The notes below the pieces were generated by a model. The model saw only the letters and a program-made list of their open reading frames with translations. It did not search any database and was not told the DNA's origin. A program made the position numbers and the translations under genes. A stretch of 20,000 nt of DNA from an uncultured virus (IMG/VR IMGVR_UViG_3300024255_000005) (taxonomy: Duplodnaviria; Heunggongvirae; Uroviricota; Caudoviricetes), in IMG/VR virus record IMGVR_UViG_3300024255_000005; one strand, written 5' to 3'. The number at the start of each line of letters is the position of its first letter. Positions within the stretch are counted from its first letter, which is position 1. Below, one piece after another: positions 4,979 to 18,191 of the stretch.

Positions 4979-7708
4979 ATGGCCAATAACGCAAAGGACA
5001 ACATACTGTTATCTCCTTTACAGAGGATAGCTAAGGCAAGTGAAAATACAGACAATAAAATGTCTGCTGTCGCGTTAGGCGTAGATGTTCTAATCAAGGG
5101 TAGCGATAATGTTAAAAGTATCTTAGAAAGACAAACTGATGTATTATTAGATATTAAGACTGCAATTACAGATTTACATAATGATATTAAGGGAGGCAAG
5201 GCAGCTGGTAAAGCAGGAGGAGAAAAAGGAGGCTTTGGCCTTGGAGGTGCTGCTAAGCTAGGAATTATGGTAGTGTTAGCCGCTGGTGCTGTTACACTCG
5301 CTTCTTTTATTATGCAAGGAATTGCTCCAGTTTCGGTTGCTCAGTTAGCAACAGCCATTCTTATATCACTTGCATTAATTCCATTGGTTAAAGCAATGGT
5401 AGAAATGTTAATGTTACTTTCACCCGTCAGAGGGTTGGGTTTCATGGCAGGTAAATTTGCGATATCTAAATTTGGAGGAGCAGCTGGTAAAAGTGCACTA
5501 GGTCCAGGTGGAGATGAAATGTCTAAAAATGGAGCGATGAAAATGGCATTTATGGTTGTATTAGGTGCAGCTGTATTAATAACTGTTTCAAGTTATATTT
5601 TATCAGTAGTAAAACCCGTTGAATTAAAGAAATTAATATCAGCCGCTGTAATAGGATTTGCACTACAACCTATGGCAATGGCATTTTTAGGTGTCGTAAT
5701 GGCATTAAAGAAGGGCGGAATAGGAATGGATAAAAATGGAGCAAAAACAATAGCAATGTCGATGTTAGTTATGGTAGCAATTACACTTGCAATAGCAGGT
5801 GTCGCAGGAGCCATGGCCATGATGCCAGCAACCTTTATCGAAGGACCTCCATTAGATTGGATTTTTATGACAGGGTTAATGCTTTTTGTTTTTTCAATTC
5901 CACTTTCTATAATATTAAGATCGGTCAAAGGATTAAATCTTAAACAAATGATATTTGCTTCACTTGCAATACCATTAATAGCTTTAGCAATTGCTGGAGT
6001 TTCTTACGCAATGGAAGGATTAAGCGGTAATTATGTGGCTCCACCTGCATCATGGACTCTAAAGGCAGGTTTTGCTCTTTTCGTATTTTCTATTCCATTA
6101 GTGATGGTATTAAGAAGTATTAAAGGAAAAACATTAAAGGAGATACTTTATGCATCTTTAGCCGTCCCTTTACTTGCGGGTACTATTGTTGCTGTAGCTT
6201 TAATGTTTACTTTTTTAGAAAAAGTAAAGGCATATAATGCACCCCCAGCAAAATGGACTTTAAAGGTAGGTTTGGCTATGGCAGTGTTTGGTATAGCATT
6301 TTATTTTATTTCTAAAGCAACTCGATCAATGGGTATAAAGGAAATTGCACTTGCAGCATTAGCCATGGGATTCATAGCTTTAGGTATATTAGCAGTCGCA
6401 TTCATATTCCAATATCTACCAGATGAATTTAAAACAGTCCCGGTTGAATGGTCATTAAAAACAGGATTAGCAGTAGCTATCTTTGGTCTTGGGTTTATGA
6501 TAGTAGTTAAACTGATGAAAACATTTGGAGTTGGCCTTAAAGATTTGGCAATGGGACTAGTCGGCATAGTAGCGATCGGTATCGCAGTACTTGCAACTGC
6601 ATGGATATTCTCAGTTTTACCAGGAAGTTTTGTACCAATACCAATTGAATGGACTATTGGCGCTGTGTTTGCTATTTCTGCATTTGCAGTTCCACTTGGT
6701 GTCGTTGGCTTAATTGCTACATCAGGTGTAGGTGCTGCAGCATTAGGATTAGGTGCCCTTGGTATGATATTATTAGCAGGTACTATATGGGCAGTTGCTT
6801 GGATATTTAGCAAATTACCAGATTTAGGAGCAATTGGTAAAAATTTCACAAATATGTTATTAGCTCCTGTTAACGGAATGATAGATTCATTTGTTAGAAT
6901 AAAAGAAGAACTTGGAATAGAAAATTTAGGAGCCCTAGGCGCTGGTTTAGTTTCAATTGCAGGTGGTTGGTTAGCATTAGTTGGTGCATTGGCTGGACAA
7001 GCAGCTGGCGATCTAGTAACTGGCGCATTGGGTGCCGGTAAAAAAGTTCTTGATTTTGTGTCATTCGGATTGACTGCAACAGAAGGACCGTTTGAAGTCT
7101 TAGATAAATTAATAAGCAGAAGAAAGGGTATTACTAGTTTAGGACCAGCTGTGGCTGCTGCCGGAAGAGGTTTTGCAGAATTATCTAAATATCAAAGCAA
7201 AGGAGTTAAAGCTCTTAATGCACTATTACCATTCTCTAACGAATGGAGAGTAAAATACTTAAGAAGTTCGGCAACACATGTTGGAACGCTTGCTAAAAAT
7301 TATGGCCTATTGGCAAAACAATCCAATAAGATGAATGTTGGTGCAATCAACGCAACCACAAGGATGTTCGATTCTTTACGTAAATTAGCAGAACAGGATA
7401 ATAATCCAATGAAAGTCCTAGCTGATGATCTGTTAAAAGCAGTTGCAGAATTATCAACTGCAGTTGACGCCCTGGATAAAGCAGTTGCTAGACAAGGTAA
7501 AACTTCTGGCGAAGCCACTAGTGTAATTGGTAAGGCACTTAATAGAGTTAAAGATCTAGTCACGAGCAATACTGAAGAAGTTAAAAAGAATACTCCAAAA
7601 GGAGGAGCTCCTAAAATGGACTTCTCTCCAGTCGTTGACGCCATATCAGAGTTAGAAGAAACATTAACCTCATCTGGAATTAAAGTTAAAAGGAATTCAG
7701 GTTGGTAA
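4979..7708 (+). CDS. Tape measure-like protein with hydrophobic repeats
   Basis: 909 aa, Ala/Gly/Leu-rich and helical, with coiled-coil-like ends and Trp-anchored repeats at 65/67-aa spacing. Canonical position downstream of tube and chaperone genes. Confidence 0.75.
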   Translation: MANNAKDNILLSPLQRIAKASENTDNKMSAVALGVDVLIKGSDNVKSILERQTDVLLDIKTAITDLHNDIKGGKAAGKAGGEKGGFGLGGAAKLGIMVVLAAGAVTLASFIMQGIAPVSVAQLATAILISLALIPLVKAMVEMLMLLSPVRGLGFMAGKFAISKFGGAAGKSALGPGGDEMSKNGAMKMAFMVVLGAAVLITVSSYILSVVKPVELKKLISAAVIGFALQPMAMAFLGVVMALKKGGIGMDKNGAKTIAMSMLVMVAITLAIAGVAGAMAMMPATFIEGPPLDWIFMTGLMLFVFSIPLSIILRSVKGLNLKQMIFASLAIPLIALAIAGVSYAMEGLSGNYVAPPASWTLKAGFALFVFSIPLVMVLRSIKGKTLKEILYASLAVPLLAGTIVAVALMFTFLEKVKAYNAPPAKWTLKVGLAMAVFGIAFYFISKATRSMGIKEIALAALAMGFIALGILAVAFIFQYLPDEFKTVPVEWSLKTGLAVAIFGLGFMIVVKLMKTFGVGLKDLAMGLVGIVAIGIAVLATAWIFSVLPGSFVPIPIEWTIGAVFAISAFAVPLGVVGLIATSGVGAAALGLGALGMILLAGTIWAVAWIFSKLPDLGAIGKNFTNMLLAPVNGMIDSFVRIKEELGIENLGALGAGLVSIAGGWLALVGALAGQAAGDLVTGALGAGKKVLDFVSFGLTATEGPFEVLDKLISRRKGITSLGPAVAAAGRGFAELSKYQSKGVKALNALLPFSNEWRVKYLRSSATHVGTLAKNYGLLAKQSNKMNVGAINATTRMFDSLRKLAEQDNNPMKVLADDLLKAVAELSTAVDALDKAVARQGKTSGEATSVIGKALNRVKDLVTSNTEEVKKNTPKGGAPKMDFSPVVDAISELEETLTSSGIKVKRNSGW

Positions 7709-8163: not shown

Positions 8164-8248
8164 GGAGAAGTGGCAGAGTGGTCGAATGCACTGGTCTTGA
8201 AAACCAGCGAACTTCACGGTTCCAGGGGTTCGAATCCCTTCTTCTCCG
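8164..8248 (+). tRNA. tRNA-Ser (anticodon UGA)
   Basis: Acceptor GGAGAAG/CTTCTCC, anticodon arm CTGGT-CTTGAAA-ACCAG, long variable arm, T-loop TTCGAAT, discriminator G. Followed by CAA, so CCA is not encoded. Confidence 0.96.
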
Positions 8249-8253
8249 CAATT

Positions 8254-8330
8254 GGTCTGGTAGTTCAGTTGGTTAGAATACATGCCTGTCACGCATGGGG
8301 TCGCGAGTTCGAATCTCGTCCAGACCGCCA
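8254..8330 (+). tRNA. tRNA-Asp (anticodon GUC)
   Basis: Acceptor GGTCTGG/CCAGACC, anticodon arm CATGC-CTGTCAC-GCATG, T-loop TTCGAAT, encoded CCA end. Confidence 0.97.
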
Positions 8331-9155: not shown

Positions 9156-9734
9156 ATGAAATCAAGAAAATTTAGCATTTCAGGATTATTAGAATTAAGA
9201 CCTGGAAAATTTGAAGACGAAAGAGGAGAGTTTATAGAAACATTCAAATCTTCAAAACTTAAAGAACTTGGAATTACAGAAGAATTTCTACAAGATAATC
9301 AATCTGTTTCTAAGAAAGGAGTATTTAGAGGAATACATTTACAAACCGGAGACAGTGCTCAAGGAAAATTAGTAAGAGTTTCTAAAGGAGCTGTTGTAGA
9401 TTTCGCAGTAGATCTTAGGCCTGGTTCCCCATCCTATGGAGAATGGACTTATGTATTATTAAGTGCGCACATAGGAAATCAATTTTGGATTCCAGCCGGA
9501 TTTGGCCATGCGTTTCTTGCCCTTGAGGATGATACAATCTTTTCATATAAATGTACTAAAGAATATGATAAGAGTGCAGAGGAGTGTCTCCTATGGACCG
9601 ACAAGGATATAGATCTGACTATAGATAAGAGTATACTTGCACAATTCAATATATCAGACATCTTAGTCTCTGAAAAGGATAAAGAAGGTATTACGCTAAA
9701 GGAATATACTAAAAAATATGGCGTACTGGTTTAA
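9156..9734 (+). CDS. rmlC: dTDP-4-dehydrorhamnose 3,5-epimerase
   Basis: Motifs FEDERGEFIETF, QDNQSVSKKGVFRGIHLQ, QGKLVRV, VDLRPGSP, IPAGFGHAF, YKCT and SEKD. Confidence 0.95.
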   Translation: MKSRKFSISGLLELRPGKFEDERGEFIETFKSSKLKELGITEEFLQDNQSVSKKGVFRGIHLQTGDSAQGKLVRVSKGAVVDFAVDLRPGSPSYGEWTYVLLSAHIGNQFWIPAGFGHAFLALEDDTIFSYKCTKEYDKSAEECLLWTDKDIDLTIDKSILAQFNISDILVSEKDKEGITLKEYTKKYGVLV

Positions 9735-10528: not shown

Positions 10529-10987
10529 ATGAAAACAGTAATTTTCGATTTAGATGGAACTCTCGCTCTTATCGACGATAGGAGAGCTATTTCCACAAAA
10601 GATAATGGTAAAATGGATTGGGACACTTTCTTCGATCCAGCAAACATTCAATTAGATAAACCGAATTGGCCAGTTATTCACATGGCAAGACTTCTTAAGA
10701 AAGATGGCCATAGAATTGTAATTTTCAGTGGAAGATCTAAAGCAACTAAGGACGCAACAAGAGATTGGTTAAACGATCTTGATATTCCATTTGATGTTTT
10801 AAAGATGCGACCAACTGATGGCGGTTTTAAATGGATGAAAGATGATGTGTTAAAAAAGAAATGGCTTGATGATTTGTTTCCAAACACAGACGATATTACA
10901 TGTGTATTTGACGACCGAGATAAAGTTGTTCAAATGTGGAGAGACAATGGTATCACTTGCTTTCAAGTAGCTGACGGTAATTTTTAA
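10529..10987 (+). CDS. HAD-family phosphatase (T4 PseT 3'-phosphatase domain-like)
   Basis: Motifs FDLDGTLA, FSGR, LKMRP and FDDRDKVVQMWR. Confidence 0.9.
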   Translation: MKTVIFDLDGTLALIDDRRAISTKDNGKMDWDTFFDPANIQLDKPNWPVIHMARLLKKDGHRIVIFSGRSKATKDATRDWLNDLDIPFDVLKMRPTDGGFKWMKDDVLKKKWLDDLFPNTDDITCVFDDRDKVVQMWRDNGITCFQVADGNF

Positions 10988-12662: not shown

Positions 12663-12687
12663 ACTTTTTGTAAAACCCATATATAAA
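12660..12687 (+). promoter_or_regulatory. Putative promoter TAAAC-N17-TATAAA
   Basis: Variant of the recurring motif; the ATG lies 4 nt downstream. Confidence 0.45.
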
Positions 12688-12691
12688 CAAT

Positions 12692-13525
12692 ATGCCAGAA
12701 TTAGCAGAATTAAAATTTACAGCAGATTACGTTAACCAAATATCGGAAGGCATGAAATATGTTAACGTAGTAAAAAACCCAGAACATAAGTGTGAAGATC
12801 TAAATATACCCTTTAAGTTTTTTAAAATTAAAGCAGAATCTAGGGGTAAGGAAATGGTTCTTCTTATTTTAGATAATGATTCTGATAAAATTATTCCAAT
12901 TCGAATGACAATGGGAATGAGCGGGTATTTTAAATTGACTAATACTGGCGACGAAGCAAAACATTCACACCTTAAATTTCATCGCAAAGACGGAACAACC
13001 CTTTCATTTGTAGATATGCGTAGATTTGGCAAGTGGAAGCAGGGTTTATGGTGGAATGATACACGAGGGGAGGATCCAACGACCTCCTTTGATTCTTTTT
13101 GGAAAGATATAATGACTAATCTAACGTCACGCGCTTTCAAGAAACCACTCTATGAAGTCCTGATGAACCAAAAATATTTTAATGGAATAGGAAATTACTT
13201 AAGAGCGGAGATTATTTATAGAGCCAAAGATGTAGATCCGTTTCTTCCAGCTGGAATGCAACTAGCAAAATACCCTAAAATACTAGAACTATGTAAAGAT
13301 ATTCCAATGCTAGCATACGCAAAAGGAGGAGGAAGCATTAAAGATTGGGATAATCCATTCGGAACAGATGCTATTCAAGAAAAATTCATGCTATGTTATG
13401 GAAATCCTGTTATGTCAAAAAGAAAAGATAGAAACGGAAGGATGTTTTGGTATGATTCTAAATGGGACAATGTTCCTACAAGTAGAGACGATTTAAAAGA
13501 ATATTTTCATGGCGATAGAAGCTAA
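12692..13525 (+). CDS. nei: Fpg/Nei-family DNA glycosylase/AP lyase, NEIL1-like (zincless finger)
   Basis: N-terminal MPELAE, RGKE, GMSG, FVDMRRFG, H2TH motif LMNQKYFNGIGNYLRAEI. No CxxC zinc finger; C-terminal DRNGRMFWY. Confidence 0.92.
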   Translation: MPELAELKFTADYVNQISEGMKYVNVVKNPEHKCEDLNIPFKFFKIKAESRGKEMVLLILDNDSDKIIPIRMTMGMSGYFKLTNTGDEAKHSHLKFHRKDGTTLSFVDMRRFGKWKQGLWWNDTRGEDPTTSFDSFWKDIMTNLTSRAFKKPLYEVLMNQKYFNGIGNYLRAEIIYRAKDVDPFLPAGMQLAKYPKILELCKDIPMLAYAKGGGSIKDWDNPFGTDAIQEKFMLCYGNPVMSKRKDRNGRMFWYDSKWDNVPTSRDDLKEYFHGDRS

Positions 13526-13694
13526 GAAGTGGCTTAACGAAAACGAATGGCCAGATAATAATATAGACAGCGATGCATTTTCTCATTACACTAAAATGAG
13601 CAGTATAATGGAACAATATGCCAGAGAATATCATGCTAAGAAATTAGAAGAAGCTCGAAAAAAAGAAGTAACACAATTTAAAAAGTTCTTATGA
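13509..13694 (+). CDS. Hypothetical protein
   Basis: 61-aa ORF overlapping both neighbours (ATGA coupling with the next gene). Confidence 0.7.
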   Translation: MAIEAKKWLNENEWPDNNIDSDAFSHYTKMSSIMEQYAREYHAKKLEEARKKEVTQFKKFL

Positions 13695-14323
13695 AGAAAC
13701 TAGAACGCATGCAAAACTTAATCGTAGTTGGACATCCTGATAAAAAATCATTTTGTTATAACGGAATTTTTAAAACAATCCAAGAATCTCTATTAGATAG
13801 TGATTACCTAAATGAAATACAGGTAATAGATTTATATAGAGATGATTTTTCTCAACCAAGAAAAGATCTTATTAAGGAATATCAAGATGCTGTAACATGG
13901 GCGGATAGAATTTACTTCGTATCTCCTGTTTGGTGGTTTAGATTAACACCTAGAATGGAAATATTCTTTGACGAAGTATTTACCCCAGGTTTTGCGTATA
14001 AGTTTGTTCCCCTTTTCGGAGCATACGCGTATCCAAGGCCATTCTTAAGTGATAAAAAGGTAAGGACATATATAACCCATGGAGCTCCTTCATTACCGGT
14101 AAGAACTCTATATTTAAACTCAGTTAAATTACGTTTAGTGATGGGAGTATTTACATTTGTATTTGGATGGAATATTTCAAGATGGTTAAAGACAAAACAA
14201 TTTTGGTCAGTTCCCTTCGTGAGCGATGCAAAAAGAAAGAAATATTTAGACAGAGTTAAAAAAGATATTAAGAGAGATCTTAAAAAACATCAAACATTAC
14301 CTATGCAACATGAAAGTATATAG
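13691..14323 (+). CDS. NAD(P)H-dependent oxidoreductase, flavodoxin-2 fold (KefF/MdaB/NQO-like)
   Basis: Motifs VVGHPDKKSF, IDLY.DDF, ADRIYFVSPVWWF..TPRME.FFDEVFTPGFAY and THGAP. Confidence 0.88.
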   Translation: MKKLERMQNLIVVGHPDKKSFCYNGIFKTIQESLLDSDYLNEIQVIDLYRDDFSQPRKDLIKEYQDAVTWADRIYFVSPVWWFRLTPRMEIFFDEVFTPGFAYKFVPLFGAYAYPRPFLSDKKVRTYITHGAPSLPVRTLYLNSVKLRLVMGVFTFVFGWNISRWLKTKQFWSVPFVSDAKRKKYLDRVKKDIKRDLKKHQTLPMQHESI

Positions 14324-14567: not shown

Positions 14568-15461
14568 ATGAAAAACGTATTAGTCACAGGTGGTGCAGGA
14601 TTTGTCGGAAGCAACCTCATTAAACACCTACAGGAAACCTATCCAAAAATTAAAATAACTTCATTAGATAATTACTTCACGGGAAAAGAAGAAAATCATG
14701 TTCCTGGCGTAACCTATTATAGAGGACATACTTGGGAAGCAGATACTATTTTTGAAAAATTACCAGAAGAAAATTACTTTGACACTGTATTTCACTTTGG
14801 AGAATATAGTAGAATTGTTCAATCGTTTGAAGATATTGATTTTGTCCATAGATCTATTCTATCTGGAACACCTGTTATATTAGAACTATGTAGAAAATGG
14901 AATTCAAAGTTAATTTATTCTGCATCTAGTTCTAAATTCGGTAACAACGGTGAAGATGAGAATCTTTCTCCTTATGCTTGGATGAAATCTAAGATGGTAG
15001 AATTAATCAAAAACTATAATACATGGTATGATCTTCAATATGAGATCTGTTATTTCTTTAATGTATACGGACCTGGTCAAATTACATCAGGTGATTATGC
15101 AACAGTTGTTGGTATTTTTGAAAGACAATTTAAGGCAGGTGAAAAATGTTCAGTAGTTTCTCCTGGAAATCAAAGTAGAGACTTCACACATGTTGAAGAC
15201 GTAGTTACAGCGCTCGGATTAGCAGCACAGAGAAAAGACAATCACGAATGGCACCTGAGAAGCGGAGTTAATACTACAATGATAGAATTAGCAGAAATGT
15301 ATGGTGATTGGGTAATGATTCCTGAAAGAAGAGGCGAAAGGTTTACAAGCGAAGACTTCCCATCAGACACTGAAGAAAAATTAGGCTGGAAACCAACTTG
15401 GAAATTACAAGATTGGGTAAATTTAGTAACATCATCAAAACAAGAAAAAATTAATGCATAA
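14568..15461 (+). CDS. NAD-dependent nucleotide-sugar epimerase/dehydratase (extended SDR)
   Basis: Motifs VTGGAGFVGS, DNYFTG, SASSS, YAWMK (YxxxK), FNVYGP and RDFTHVED. Confidence 0.93.
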   Translation: MKNVLVTGGAGFVGSNLIKHLQETYPKIKITSLDNYFTGKEENHVPGVTYYRGHTWEADTIFEKLPEENYFDTVFHFGEYSRIVQSFEDIDFVHRSILSGTPVILELCRKWNSKLIYSASSSKFGNNGEDENLSPYAWMKSKMVELIKNYNTWYDLQYEICYFFNVYGPGQITSGDYATVVGIFERQFKAGEKCSVVSPGNQSRDFTHVEDVVTALGLAAQRKDNHEWHLRSGVNTTMIELAEMYGDWVMIPERRGERFTSEDFPSDTEEKLGWKPTWKLQDWVNLVTSSKQEKINA

Positions 15462-17591: not shown

Positions 17592-18191
17592 ATGGCTACC
17601 TACAAACAACTAACTCAAAACTTTCTAGAAACAGGATCAGATCAAGACTTCGCAGCTCTTTACAACAAGATAAAGCCGGGTCTAACTTCGTACATTTACA
17701 AAATAGTTAAAGATCGTGAAATGGCAGAAGACATTGCAGTAAACACATTAACTAAGATGTGGACCAAAATCGAACAATATAACCCAAGTTACGGAATTAC
17801 TACTTGGTTATATAGAATCGCATTTAACGACTCTTTAGGTTATATTAAAAAAAGAAATCAAACTACGTCTTTGAGTAAATTATCAGAATATGGCGTAGAA
17901 ATAAGTGGCGCTGGATCAGTTTCAAATACTCTAAAAGATTTAGTCTTAGATCATGAAGAAAAAACTGAACAAGATTATCTAGAAGAAGATGACGCTCTTC
18001 AAGACAAATACATTAAAACTCTAGAAGCTATGCAAAATCTAAAAGAAATGTACAGAGACATCTTAGTAGACAGAATGGTAAATCATATGAAATACGATCA
18101 GCTAGCTGATAAATATAAACTTCCACTTCAAACTATTAAGAATAGAATCCGTAGAGGTAAAGCTTTAATCGTTGAAGCTGTAGAAAAATAA
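17592..18191 (+). CDS. RNA polymerase sigma factor, ECF/sigma-70 group 4-like
   Basis: Region 2: DFAALYN, AEDIAVNTLTKMW, TTWLYRIAFN. Region 4 HTH: MKYDQLADKYKLPLQTIKNRIRRGK. Confidence 0.92.
   Translation: MATYKQLTQNFLETGSDQDFAALYNKIKPGLTSYIYKIVKDREMAEDIAVNTLTKMWTKIEQYNPSYGITTWLYRIAFNDSLGYIKKRNQTTSLSKLSEYGVEISGAGSVSNTLKDLVLDHEEKTEQDYLEEDDALQDKYIKTLEAMQNLKEMYRDILVDRMVNHMKYDQLADKYKLPLQTIKNRIRRGKALIVEAVEK

Follow-up and report, generated by a model that had tools for sequence, protein, structure and literature searches.

A marine tailed phage, probably of the jumbo type, carries a gene for a DNA glycosylase that profile searches, phylogeny and a predicted structure together support as a NEIL1-type enzyme and not as an ordinary bacterial Fpg or Nei. 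This phage copy belongs to a large, old and diverse phage-borne family rather than reflecting a lone transfer, and eukaryotic NEIL1 has no closer known relatives than that family. We consider it likely that the product is an active, compact NEIL1-type bifunctional glycosylase/β,δ-lyase that removes oxidised bases during infection. Our analysis covered a window of 20,000 nucleotides (the whole stretch of DNA under study, from IMG/VR record IMGVR_UViG_3300024255_000005), the features of which are listed in Table 1; a preliminary description of the sequence had placed the gene in a bacteriophage, in agreement with the tail sheath and tube encoded in the window and with the IMG/VR contigs on which relatives occur.

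Table 1. Features of the glycosylase gene and its neighbours in the window.
Feature	Position	Strand	Evidence
NEIL1-type DNA glycosylase/AP lyase coding sequence	12692..13525	+	Open reading frame list; 277 aa plus stop
N-terminal catalytic domain, residues 1–115	12692..13036	+	Pfam Fapy_DNA_glyco, E 4.5e-12, 47.1 bits, cut-off 25.5
H2TH (helix-two-turn-helix) DNA-binding domain, residues 138–208, including NGIGNYLRAE	13103..13315	+	Pfam H2TH; helices in model
Putative lesion-recognition loop, residues 211–230	13322..13381	+	GGG-x-x-K/R-x-W
Zincless finger, residues 231–255, β-hairpin with Tyr236, Asp246, Arg250 and Trp253	13382..13456	+	Pfam Neil1-DNA_bind and model
Stand-alone polynucleotide-kinase-type 3′-phosphatase domain	10529..10987	+	Pfam HAD_PNKP, E 1.2e-30
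Small conserved open reading frame, 61 aa	13509..13694	+	17-nt overlap with the 3′ end of the glycosylase gene
NAD(P)H quinone oxidoreductase-like flavodoxin-fold gene	13691..14323	+	Pfam Flavodoxin_2, E 4.5e-21; just downstream of glycosylase

The glycosylase gene opens with the codons ATG CCA GAA (Met-Pro-Glu) and has a GC content (0.32–0.34) like that of its flanks. Its translation contains three cysteines (C34, C201 and C235, one of them within the C-terminal 45 residues) and no CxxC...CxxC finger, which bears out the earlier claim that the four-Cys zinc finger is missing; the same pattern, sought by regular expression, was found in none of 160 NEIL1-type rows vs seven of 16 Fpg/Nei control rows. 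A whole-protein phmmer search of the PDB matched 35 sequences, the best 15 of which were all human NEIL1 (hNEIL1; top match E 4.9e-39, 137 bits), followed by formamidopyrimidine glycosylase chains 3a45/3a42 at 6e-9 and no more than 38 bits, with E. coli Fpg (1k82) at E 7.7e-8. Judged by sequence, the match to hNEIL1, which falls into two aligned stretches (residues 1–187 and 193–256), is far beyond chance. All five phage segments quoted in the preliminary description occur in the translation, and the five hNEIL1 segments given there as their counterparts are all aligned to them by HMMER.

Among eukaryotic proteins, tuatara NEIL1 scored 161 bits at 35% identity by BLASTP, metazoan NEIL1s were 33–43% identical to the phage protein, and of the eight named eukaryotic NEIL1s that aligned in full, all but Pelomyxa (130 bits) scored 141–163 bits. 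The corresponding scores for E. coli Fpg and Nei were 52 and 35 bits. These figures already contradict the proposal that the gene is an ordinary Fpg/Nei derived from a bacterial host, with its zinc finger lost and its NEIL1 likeness acquired by convergence, which we regard as extremely unlikely. Such an origin would account for the shared Fpg/Nei fold and for the matches to NCBIfam Fpg models at E 1e-20, but the protein fell under every NCBIfam cut-off for bacterial Fpg and Nei, and far under those of the equivalog models: 73.9 bits vs 203.3 for TIGR00577 (Fpg) and 33.5 vs 252 for NF007763 (Nei). Furthermore, in an outgroup-rooted mixture-model maximum-likelihood tree, the NEIL1-type group was split from Fpg/Nei at 100/99, so that the grouping within bacterial Fpg/Nei named beforehand as grounds for abandoning the NEIL1 assignment was not seen. 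A sample of 401 Bacteroidota genomes yielded a strong match only in a genome with a phage contig, the remaining 25 matches having E-values of 7e-8 or weaker.

The AlphaFold2 (AF2) model of the protein (pLDDT 93.3, pTM 0.88) is predicted to have the Fpg/Nei architecture of N-terminal β-sandwich, H2TH and C-terminal finger, with finger strands at residues 242–245 and 251–254. A structure prediction had been proposed at the outset as a check, and the model was indeed closest to hNEIL1, which took every Foldseek rank down to at least the 50th (best E 5.6e-27) and aligned in VIA-align with Z 30.9 and rmsd 2.2 Å over 256 residues (model residues 2–265 vs hNEIL1 2–290), against Z ≤23.2 for Fpg, MvNei1, Nei and NEIL2/3. 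At domain level, the Pfam H2TH match had E 3.8e-5 but 24.0 bits, under the cut-off of 34.7. The search with the Neil1 DNA-binding model (Neil1-DNA_bind, PF09292), also proposed earlier, did return a match (E 1.2e-4), although at 22.2 bits it lies slightly under the cut-off of 25.

Residue-level comparison points the same way. In the HMMER alignment, Pro2, Glu3, Glu6, Lys53, Met76, Arg110, Arg111 and Phe112 of the catalytic domain correspond to hNEIL1 Pro2, Glu3, Glu6, Lys54, Met81, Arg118, Arg119 and Phe120, and all eight are invariant in 81/81 phage copies, every one of which begins M-P-E and has M-P-E-x-x-E. In the finger, Y236 corresponds to hNEIL1 Tyr263 and R250 to hNEIL1 Arg277, and R250 is kept in all 80 phage copies that reach that position. 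Of the 15 hNEIL1 catalytic or DNA-contact residues whose roles are set out in the available extract of PMC10164570, 11 are identical in the phage protein and all 11 are invariant among the 81 copies (80/80 for R250). The H2TH motif is similarly constrained across 108 sequences, with Q160, G167 and Y169 invariant and N164, G165, N168, L170 and R171 nearly so. Among phage copies, dN/dS was 0.05–0.11 at dS 0.6–3.9, and the gene is under purifying selection. That a catalytically dead DNA-binding protein has merely kept the fold has a negligible probability, given that 55 distinct phage proteins show no variation at Pro2, Glu3, Glu6, Lys53 and Arg250 and that dN/dS is about 0.1.

The four differing contacts are R78, Q130, K242 and Y244 of hNEIL1, replaced by T73, N122, G214 and I216. 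Two of these four lie in the lesion-recognition loop, so the substrate range may differ from that of NEIL1. The pairing of hNEIL1 Lys242/Tyr244 with G214/I216 comes from a HMMER alignment that is unreliable in the loop, where K/R217 and W219 are conserved close by, and pLDDT in the model falls to 81 and 73 there. The loop has its own pattern—G212–G214 and W219 in 81/81 copies, with residue 217 K in 73 and R in eight—unlike the GG-K/R-G-Y of vertebrate NEIL1.

Relatives of the gene were found on 146 IMG/VR contigs in a single-query scan and on 436 IMG/VR stretches in a profile-pattern scan, and, when clustered at 90% identity, the phage-borne family falls into 1,795 clusters or more. The JGI label on relatives is ‘endonuclease VIII-like 1’. 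Among the records open to the search, cultured phages gave no blastn match and just 10 weak tblastn matches at ≤34% identity, and no host system in culture was found. When 185,579 species genomes were scanned with patterns, an approach that detects close relatives only, a single carrier contig came up, in a Flavobacteriaceae metagenome-assembled genome; this contig was rejected as a bacterial carrier, as it has the same size and range as an IMG/VR contig (L034) and is thus a binned phage contig, and it is the phage contig behind the one strong match in the Bacteroidota sample. Six RNA-labelled marine metatranscriptome runs contained 0.69–0.80 of the gene’s sampled words, although these runs consist of contigs and may include DNA. 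Our literature search found no paper on a phage NEIL1-type family.

We judge it very unlikely that the gene was captured recently from an animal or another eukaryote, or that eukaryotic contamination was mis-assembled onto phage DNA. The identity to metazoan NEIL1 given above speaks for this reading, as does an approximately unbiased (AU) test that did not reject a clade uniting the phage forms with six Metazoa (p 0.315, lnL 20.3 lower). Against it, 80 independent viral loci have the gene at the same position, its neighbours conserved, ten contigs from different records are 99% identical, and the gene matches its flanks in GC. Phage forms are as divergent from one another as from eukaryotes (window protein vs phage form P0164, 159 bits; vs Hydra, 163 bits), they lack the post-H2TH insert and long C-terminal tail of the eukaryotic enzymes, and the maximum-likelihood tree contains a eukaryote-only clade at 98/98. 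The glycosylase gene has been resident in phage genomes for a long time.

In that tree, which was rooted on eight Fpg/Nei rows and did not include NEIL2, NEIL3, MvNei or plant Fpg sequences, the 22 eukaryote and long-form rows make up the 98/98 clade, with the phage protein outside it; the eukaryote clade sits among phage lineages, where basal branches are weak. Short-form monophyly appeared in 0/200 mixture-model bootstrap trees, whereas FastTree gave a monophyletic short clade with support of 100, and we trust neither tree for the root. For the basal short forms P0136 and P0147, the pattern scan brought up no close relatives in IMG/VR; P0136 is a singleton, its next relative 44% identical, and shows no bacterial marks. 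The post-H2TH segment measures 7–13 residues in 80 of 84 short rows vs at least 16 in 22 of 24 long rows. The phage protein stands apart from the crown eukaryotic NEIL1 orthologue group in its position outside the clade, its missing insert and its length of 277 aa; the tree part of this exclusion is soft, as the AU test does not reject the Metazoa grouping.

The preliminary description had likened the protein to metazoan NEIL1 and proposed that it bears on the origin or transfer of NEIL1. NEIL1-type likeness holds, but ‘metazoan’ is too narrow, as homologues that their sources name NEIL1 come from Amoebozoa and a choanoflagellate as well, and the phage protein is roughly as near to vertebrate NEIL1 as these are: vertebrate NEIL1 scored 161 bits against the phage protein and 173, 142 and 133 bits against the choanoflagellate and amoebozoan homologues. 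The family is indeed relevant to where NEIL1 came from; the AU test rejects neither a sister relation of phage and eukaryotic forms (p 0.39) nor the Metazoa grouping, and so singles out no direction of transfer. We tentatively entertain, as a possible though doubtful reading, that eukaryotic NEIL1 was not born in animals and instead descends from the phage family, acquired by an early eukaryote ancestral to animals, choanoflagellates and Amoebozoa, and later gaining the insert and a regulatory tail.

Among known systems, eukaryotic NEIL1 (human structures such as 1TDH, 4NRV, 5ITx, 6LWx and 8FTJ) is closest in both sequence and fold, sharing with the phage protein the N-terminal Pro-Glu, Glu6, the lysine, the Met/Arg/Phe wedge, the H2TH motif and a zincless finger with Tyr and Arg. 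It differs in being carried by eukaryotes rather than phages and in its size, roughly 360–490 aa for named animal NEIL1. Bacterial Fpg (MutM) and Nei (endonuclease VIII) have the same fold and N-terminal Pro/Glu chemistry (Z 19.8–23.2), but carry the four-Cys zinc finger. Mimivirus Nei1 (MvNei1) is reportedly a viral NEIL1 ortholog; PDB entries 3A45, 3A46 and 3VK7 are presumably this enzyme, and 3A42 carries that title in our structure comparison. It is much further from NEIL1, with 28 bits (E 1e-5) against tuatara NEIL1 compared with 161 for the phage protein; phage protein and MvNei1 chains match at 38 bits and Z 22.8, and MvNei1 is carried not by a phage but by a giant virus of eukaryotes. 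As far as the available portion of PMC3188539 goes, MvNei1 resembles the phage protein in that it is an Fpg/Nei enzyme encoded by a virus and its finger is zincless, and the Fpg/Nei phylogeny given there has NEIL1 as a metazoan clade (‘MeNeil1’) and mimivirus enzymes as its viral examples.

The surroundings of the gene suggest how such an enzyme might be used. The upstream 3′-phosphatase matches polynucleotide kinase chains in the PDB (1ltq positions 160–301, 5uj0 and Pnkp1 4xrp) and is a possible downstream partner that would clear the 3′-phosphate left by β,δ-elimination. No more than 6 kb separates it from the glycosylase in 19 of the 80 loci (close relatives of the window plus three others), and it is distant from the glycosylase in G405 and G407; tight linkage of the two genes is not conserved beyond close relatives and was discarded. 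Among five related partial phage records, the 3′-phosphatase occurs anywhere in four, ATP ligase in four, family-B polymerase in all five and pyrimidine-dimer DNA glycosylase in one, while NAD-dependent ligase and family-A polymerase occur in none. In any case, large phages commonly carry phosphatase and ligase genes. The 61-aa open reading frame has a tblastn match in 38/80 related loci and no family match in domain searches. The flavodoxin-fold gene, which matches NADPH quinone oxidoreductase structures (3lcm/4f8y, E 4.9e-12), stands immediately downstream of the glycosylase in 42/80 loci, and the two may form an oxidative-stress pairing. A downstream block, made up of GMP kinase, orf170, orf171, phosphoesterase and sigma factor, is shared by 51–59 of the 80 loci and retained down to 52–55% glycosylase identity.

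Once Met1 is removed, the amine of Pro2 would attack a damaged, flipped-out nucleotide at C1′ and Glu3 would protonate O4′, with Met76, Arg110 and Phe112 filling the gap in the helix and Lys53, Tyr236 and Arg250—the last on the zinc-free β-hairpin—holding the backbone. Base release followed by β,δ-elimination would leave a one-nucleotide gap with a 3′-phosphate. The phage polynucleotide-kinase-type 3′-phosphatase, or an enzyme of the host, could clear this end, after which closure of the gap could fall to a polymerase and the ATP-dependent ligase of the phage. During infection, in sea water that is oxygenated and may be sunlit, the likely substrates would be oxidised pyrimidines, hydantoins, Fapy lesions and AP sites, carried by the DNA of the phage and perhaps by that of the host.

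Rather than repairing oxidised bases, NEIL1-like catalysis might serve mainly to cut AP sites or unusual bases in host-DNA takeover, in nucleotide salvage or in dealing with damage inflicted by defence glycosylases of the host. We rate this as unlikely, though less so than the other alternatives. The gene sits among neighbours with nucleotide-metabolism roles (GMP kinase, NT5C-type nucleotidase, SNase-type nuclease and phosphoesterase), the GMP kinase block being the most conserved (59/80 loci), and its recognition loop is unlike that of vertebrate NEIL1. However, nothing in the data points to any specific non-repair substrate, the quinone-reductase-like neighbour fits oxidative stress better, and phage repair glycosylases have precedent: the accessible part of PMC9964418 describes a pyrimidine-dimer DNA glycosylase in cyanophages with a proposed role in repairing damaged DNA during infection. 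Enzymes of this T4 endonuclease V type are a precedent for a phage-encoded base-excision glycosylase/lyase, but have an unrelated fold and act on UV dimers rather than oxidised bases.

Repair of oxidised bases remains our preferred role for the phage enzyme. The mimivirus enzyme is far more remote from NEIL1 than is the conserved and very large family carried by marine tailed phages, and the origin of NEIL1 becomes testable as passage from phage to early eukaryote, the reverse, or descent along old sister lines. The family offers compact natural NEIL1-type enzymes, free of insert and tail, for structural and substrate studies. It also suggests that large marine phages invest in oxidised-base repair, possibly with their own 3′-phosphatase and ligase. 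Human cells possess a route from NEIL through a 3′-phosphate to PNKP, as outlined in the available section of PMC10778768, and such phage repair would mirror this APE1-independent NEIL–PNKP branch of human base excision repair.

The phage glycosylase is set apart from bacterial Fpg/Nei enzymes by its sequence matches. When the protein was compared by phmmer with every chain sequence in the PDB, 35 distinct sequences had E up to 0.01, and human NEIL1 accounted for all of the top 15 (hNEIL1; E 4.9e-39 to 3.3e-37), aligned in two stretches (residues 1–187 and 193–256). Next came the formamidopyrimidine glycosylase chains 3a45/3a42 (6e-9; 3a42 is titled MvNei1), and E. coli Fpg (1k82, 7.7e-8) ranked behind both. 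The preliminary description had paired segments of the protein with segments of human NEIL1; as every one of these pairs is present in the hNEIL1 alignment, that observation is confirmed. Pfam Fapy_DNA_glyco exceeded its cut-off (E 4.5e-12), while H2TH fell just short of its own (24.0 bits, cut-off 34.7). The Neil1-DNA_bind model, proposed earlier as a check, gave the protein a score (22.2 bits) slightly under its cut-off of 25. No bacterial NCBIfam equivalog model came near its cut-off (Fpg 73.9 vs 203.3; Nei 33.5 vs 252), and the PHROGs counterpart, phrog_21295 (E 1.7e-17), is a family without known function.

The protein begins M-P-E (codons ATG CCA GAA) and contains three cysteines (C34, C201, C235). 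Because only one falls within the last 45 residues, the protein lacks a bacterial Fpg/Nei-type zinc finger with four Cys, as had been noticed at the outset. A CxxC...CxxC pattern occurred in 0/160 NEIL1-type rows (the window, 9 near relatives and 150 representatives) vs 7/16 Fpg/Nei controls, namely E. coli Fpg, E. coli Nei and five of 14 Bacteroidota proteins.

An AlphaFold2 model built with a 108-row alignment (mean pLDDT 93.3, pTM 0.88) showed lower confidence only at a loop around residues 211–230 (block means 81 and 73) and beyond residue 260. When this model was searched with Foldseek, human NEIL1 chains filled at least the top 50 ranks (best E 5.6e-27, TM 0.75–0.91). VIA-align against 48,161 cluster representatives, named here by structure title, gave Z 30.9 for hNEIL1 (rmsd 2.2 Å, 256 residues), followed by Thermus thermophilus Fpg (23.2), E. 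coli Fpg (23.1), MvNei1 (22.8), MutM (4cis, 22.4), Arabidopsis Fpg (20.6), a viral DNA glycosylase (4mb7, 20.0), E. coli Nei (19.8), mouse NEIL3 (18.3), M. smegmatis Nei2 (17.8) and NEIL2 (11.3).

Fifteen hNEIL1 residues named in PMC10164570 were transferred to the phage protein through the phmmer alignment. Eleven are identical: Pro2, Glu3 and Glu6 (P2, E3, E6), Lys54 and Met81 (K53, M76), Arg118, Arg119 and Phe120 (R110, R111, F112), and Arg133, Tyr263 and Arg277 (R125, Y236, R250). Arg78 and Gln130 are replaced by T73 and N122, and the recognition-loop pair Lys242 and Tyr244 by G214 and I216. Across the window and 80 IMG/VR copies (55 distinct proteins), the M-P-E start and P2, E3, E6, K53, M76, R110, R111, F112, R125, G212–G214, W219 and Y236 were present in 81/81. 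D246, R250 and W253 were conserved in 80/80, one copy (L049) being truncated at its contig end; at residue 217, 73 copies have K and eight have R. Compared with the window, dN/dS was 0.05–0.11 in eight loci (dS 0.6–3.9) and 0.20 in locus L001 at dS 0.04.

Cluster look-up gave the name NEIL1 to long representatives from Hydra, tuatara, three molluscs and a tinamou. Deeper ones belong to the Amoebozoa Planoprotostelium and Pelomyxa and to the choanoflagellate Salpingoeca; for ten representatives of the compact short forms the look-up returned no organism names. Long forms carry a post-H2TH insert of at least 16 residues in 22/24 rows, whereas short forms have 7–13 residues after H2TH in 80/84 rows (the printed tally being 81 rows). 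The phage protein scored 163 bits to Hydra NEIL1, about level with some members of its own short-form family (P0164, 159 bits). Tuatara NEIL1 scored 445 bits to hNEIL1, 173 to Salpingoeca, 161 to the phage protein (35% identity), 142 to Planoprotostelium, 133 to Pelomyxa, 38–47 to E. coli and Bacteroidota Fpg/Nei and only 28 to 3a42/3a45.

Trees were built without NEIL2, NEIL3, mimivirus or plant sequences. FastTree, on 165 rows including 16 Fpg/Nei outgroup rows (11 rows <235 aa dropped), supported the NEIL1-type ingroup at 99, a 93-row short-form clade at 100 and a 44-row clade with six named Metazoa at 87. IQ-TREE (LG+C20+F+G4, PMSF; 1,000 ultrafast bootstraps) was run on 71 rows: 41 short forms, nine named eukaryotes, 13 unnamed long forms and eight outgroup rows. 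It separated the NEIL1-type ingroup from Fpg/Nei at 100/99, bearing out the initial assignment to NEIL1 rather than Fpg/Nei; this separation is the sole firm result of the trees. All 22 eukaryote and long rows fell in one clade (98/98; Metazoa 88/95). The outgroup joined among the short forms, beside members P0136 and P0147, on weak branches (87/37 and 93/58), and short-form monophyly appeared in 0/200 IQ-TREE bootstrap trees. In AU tests neither short-form monophyly (lnL 8.4 lower, p 0.393) nor a clade of short forms and six Metazoa (lnL 20.3 lower, p 0.315) was rejected. As the trees do not fix the branching order within the NEIL1-type group, they do not fix the direction of any transfer either.

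Relatives are numerous. Of 1,387 candidates from a word-indexed search, 1,143 proteins reached E<=1e-5; the 120 matches listed (69–96% identical, 206–288 aa) carry no organism names, and several are labelled 'endonuclease VIII-like 1' by JGI, so this automatic annotation had already captured the NEIL1 similarity in databases. Our literature search found no paper on NEIL1-type genes in phages, most subscription journals lying outside its coverage, so that an earlier mention is possible. PMC3188539 calls the clade 'MeNeil1', and 'phage' is absent from its main text as far as available; the accessible part of PMC9001079 mentions neither phages nor viruses. Exhaustive search of representatives of 50%-identity clusters gave 1,875 (E<=1e-3), 407 (<=1e-10) and 133 (<=1e-30), and a search from the divergent member P0136 gave 1,795 clusters at 90% identity (E<=1e-20, of 1,981 candidates), the 120 listed having longest contigs <=349 kb and no organism names.

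A relative was encoded in 146/147 pattern-matched IMG/VR stretches, and in 436/450 with profile patterns; the nearest six ESM Atlas rows were 78–95% 'Viruses', Uroviricota being commonest, and cultured phages in INPHARED gave only 10 matches, all weak. A pattern scan of prokaryote genomes returned a single contig, filed in a Flavobacteriaceae MAG. It equals an IMG/VR viral contig (41,865 bp) in length and range and shares genes of the phage lineage. A binned phage contig, it offers a weak hint of the host at best. Among 401 genomes sampled for bacterial carriers, all Bacteroidota, 26 had a match, strong only in that contig (2.4e-142; runner-up 7.4e-8). No Shine-Dalgarno-like purine run was found in the AT-rich spacer before the glycosylase ATG (12663–12691), a combination that would fit a Bacteroidota-type host. 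Sampled glycosylase words occurred in 20 runs from 19 studies with seawater or marine metagenome labels (2016–2025), two of them being possible sources. Six RNA-labelled runs held 0.69–0.80 of the words; these runs are contigs and could carry DNA.

Features of the window around the glycosylase gene
Feature	Position	Strand	Remarks
909-aa ORF	4979–7708		
tRNA-Ser(TGA)	8164–8249	+	adjacent to tRNA-Asp
tRNA-Asp(GTC)	8254–8330	+	adjacent to tRNA-Ser
dTDP-4-dehydrorhamnose 3,5-epimerase	9156–9734		
Stand-alone PNK-type 3'-phosphatase domain	10529–10987		152 aa; 1.7 kb upstream of glycosylase
NEIL1-type glycosylase ORF	12692..13525	+	ATG start, 277 aa; from ORF list
61-aa ORF	starts 13509		overlaps glycosylase 3' end by 17 nt; downstream in 38/80 loci
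NAD(P)H quinone oxidoreductase-like gene	after 61-aa ORF, to 14323		downstream in 42/80 loci
NAD-dependent sugar epimerase/dehydratase	14568–15461		
Sigma-70-like factor	17592–18191		regions 2 and 4; found in 51/80 related loci

Proteins encoded in the window include a tail sheath (phrog_34521, E 7e-121) and a tube protein, together with an SNase-type nuclease, sugar-nucleotide epimerases, a GMP kinase, a sigma-70-like factor and an NT5C-type nucleotidase. The closest sheath relatives come from an uncultured phage of 462 kb (49% identity), from Lak megaphages, and from jumbo phages of Tenacibaculum, Flavobacterium and Sphingomonas. Five related IMG/VR records span 124–236 kb at 44–77% estimated completeness, and dividing size by completeness would put full genomes of this lineage at ~280–310 kb. 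GC in the glycosylase region (0.32–0.34) is that of the window. The two sugar epimerases lie in the phage's nucleotide-metabolism region, with host surface sugars or DNA modification as candidate targets. The 909-aa ORF, lacking Pfam or PHROG matches, was found by tblastn in 35/80 related loci; its stretch has GC 0.38 and the window's highest GC skew (~0.2).

By tblastn of window proteins against 80 loci, many of which end at contig edges, the GMP kinase was found in 59, the downstream ORFs orf170 and orf171 in 57 and 55, and a phosphoesterase in 53. The 3'-phosphatase occurred in 19/80, comprising 16 close relatives along with L047, L051 and L053, and lies immediately upstream of the glycosylase in the last two. 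Even in the most distant loci, whose glycosylases are 52–57% identical, the GMP kinase sits immediately 3' of the glycosylase, so the latter is an old resident of the phage lineage.

By analogy, the phage protein would be an active bifunctional glycosylase/beta,delta-lyase working like hNEIL1, whose chemistry is described in PMC10164570; PMC10778768 covers the resulting 3'-phosphate and how PNKP removes it. The window's phosphatase domain matches positions 160–301 of the polynucleotide kinase chain 1ltq, and also 5uj0 and Pnkp1, and the kinase half is absent. The quinone-reductase-like neighbour would fit an oxidative-stress theme. Family-B polymerase matches in all five related records are split over two open frames (~467 and 400 aa) ~4 kb apart, at 113054–113392 and 117453–118223 in G403, the record of locus L003, and likewise in G404–G407, which suggests a split gene in related phages. 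Large phages commonly carry phosphatase, polymerase and ligase genes, which here show no linkage to the glycosylase beyond close relatives. Since the five partial records hold the phosphatase (four), an ATP-dependent ligase (four) and a family-B polymerase (five), a phage-autonomous NEIL–phosphatase–polymerase–ligase route is possible.
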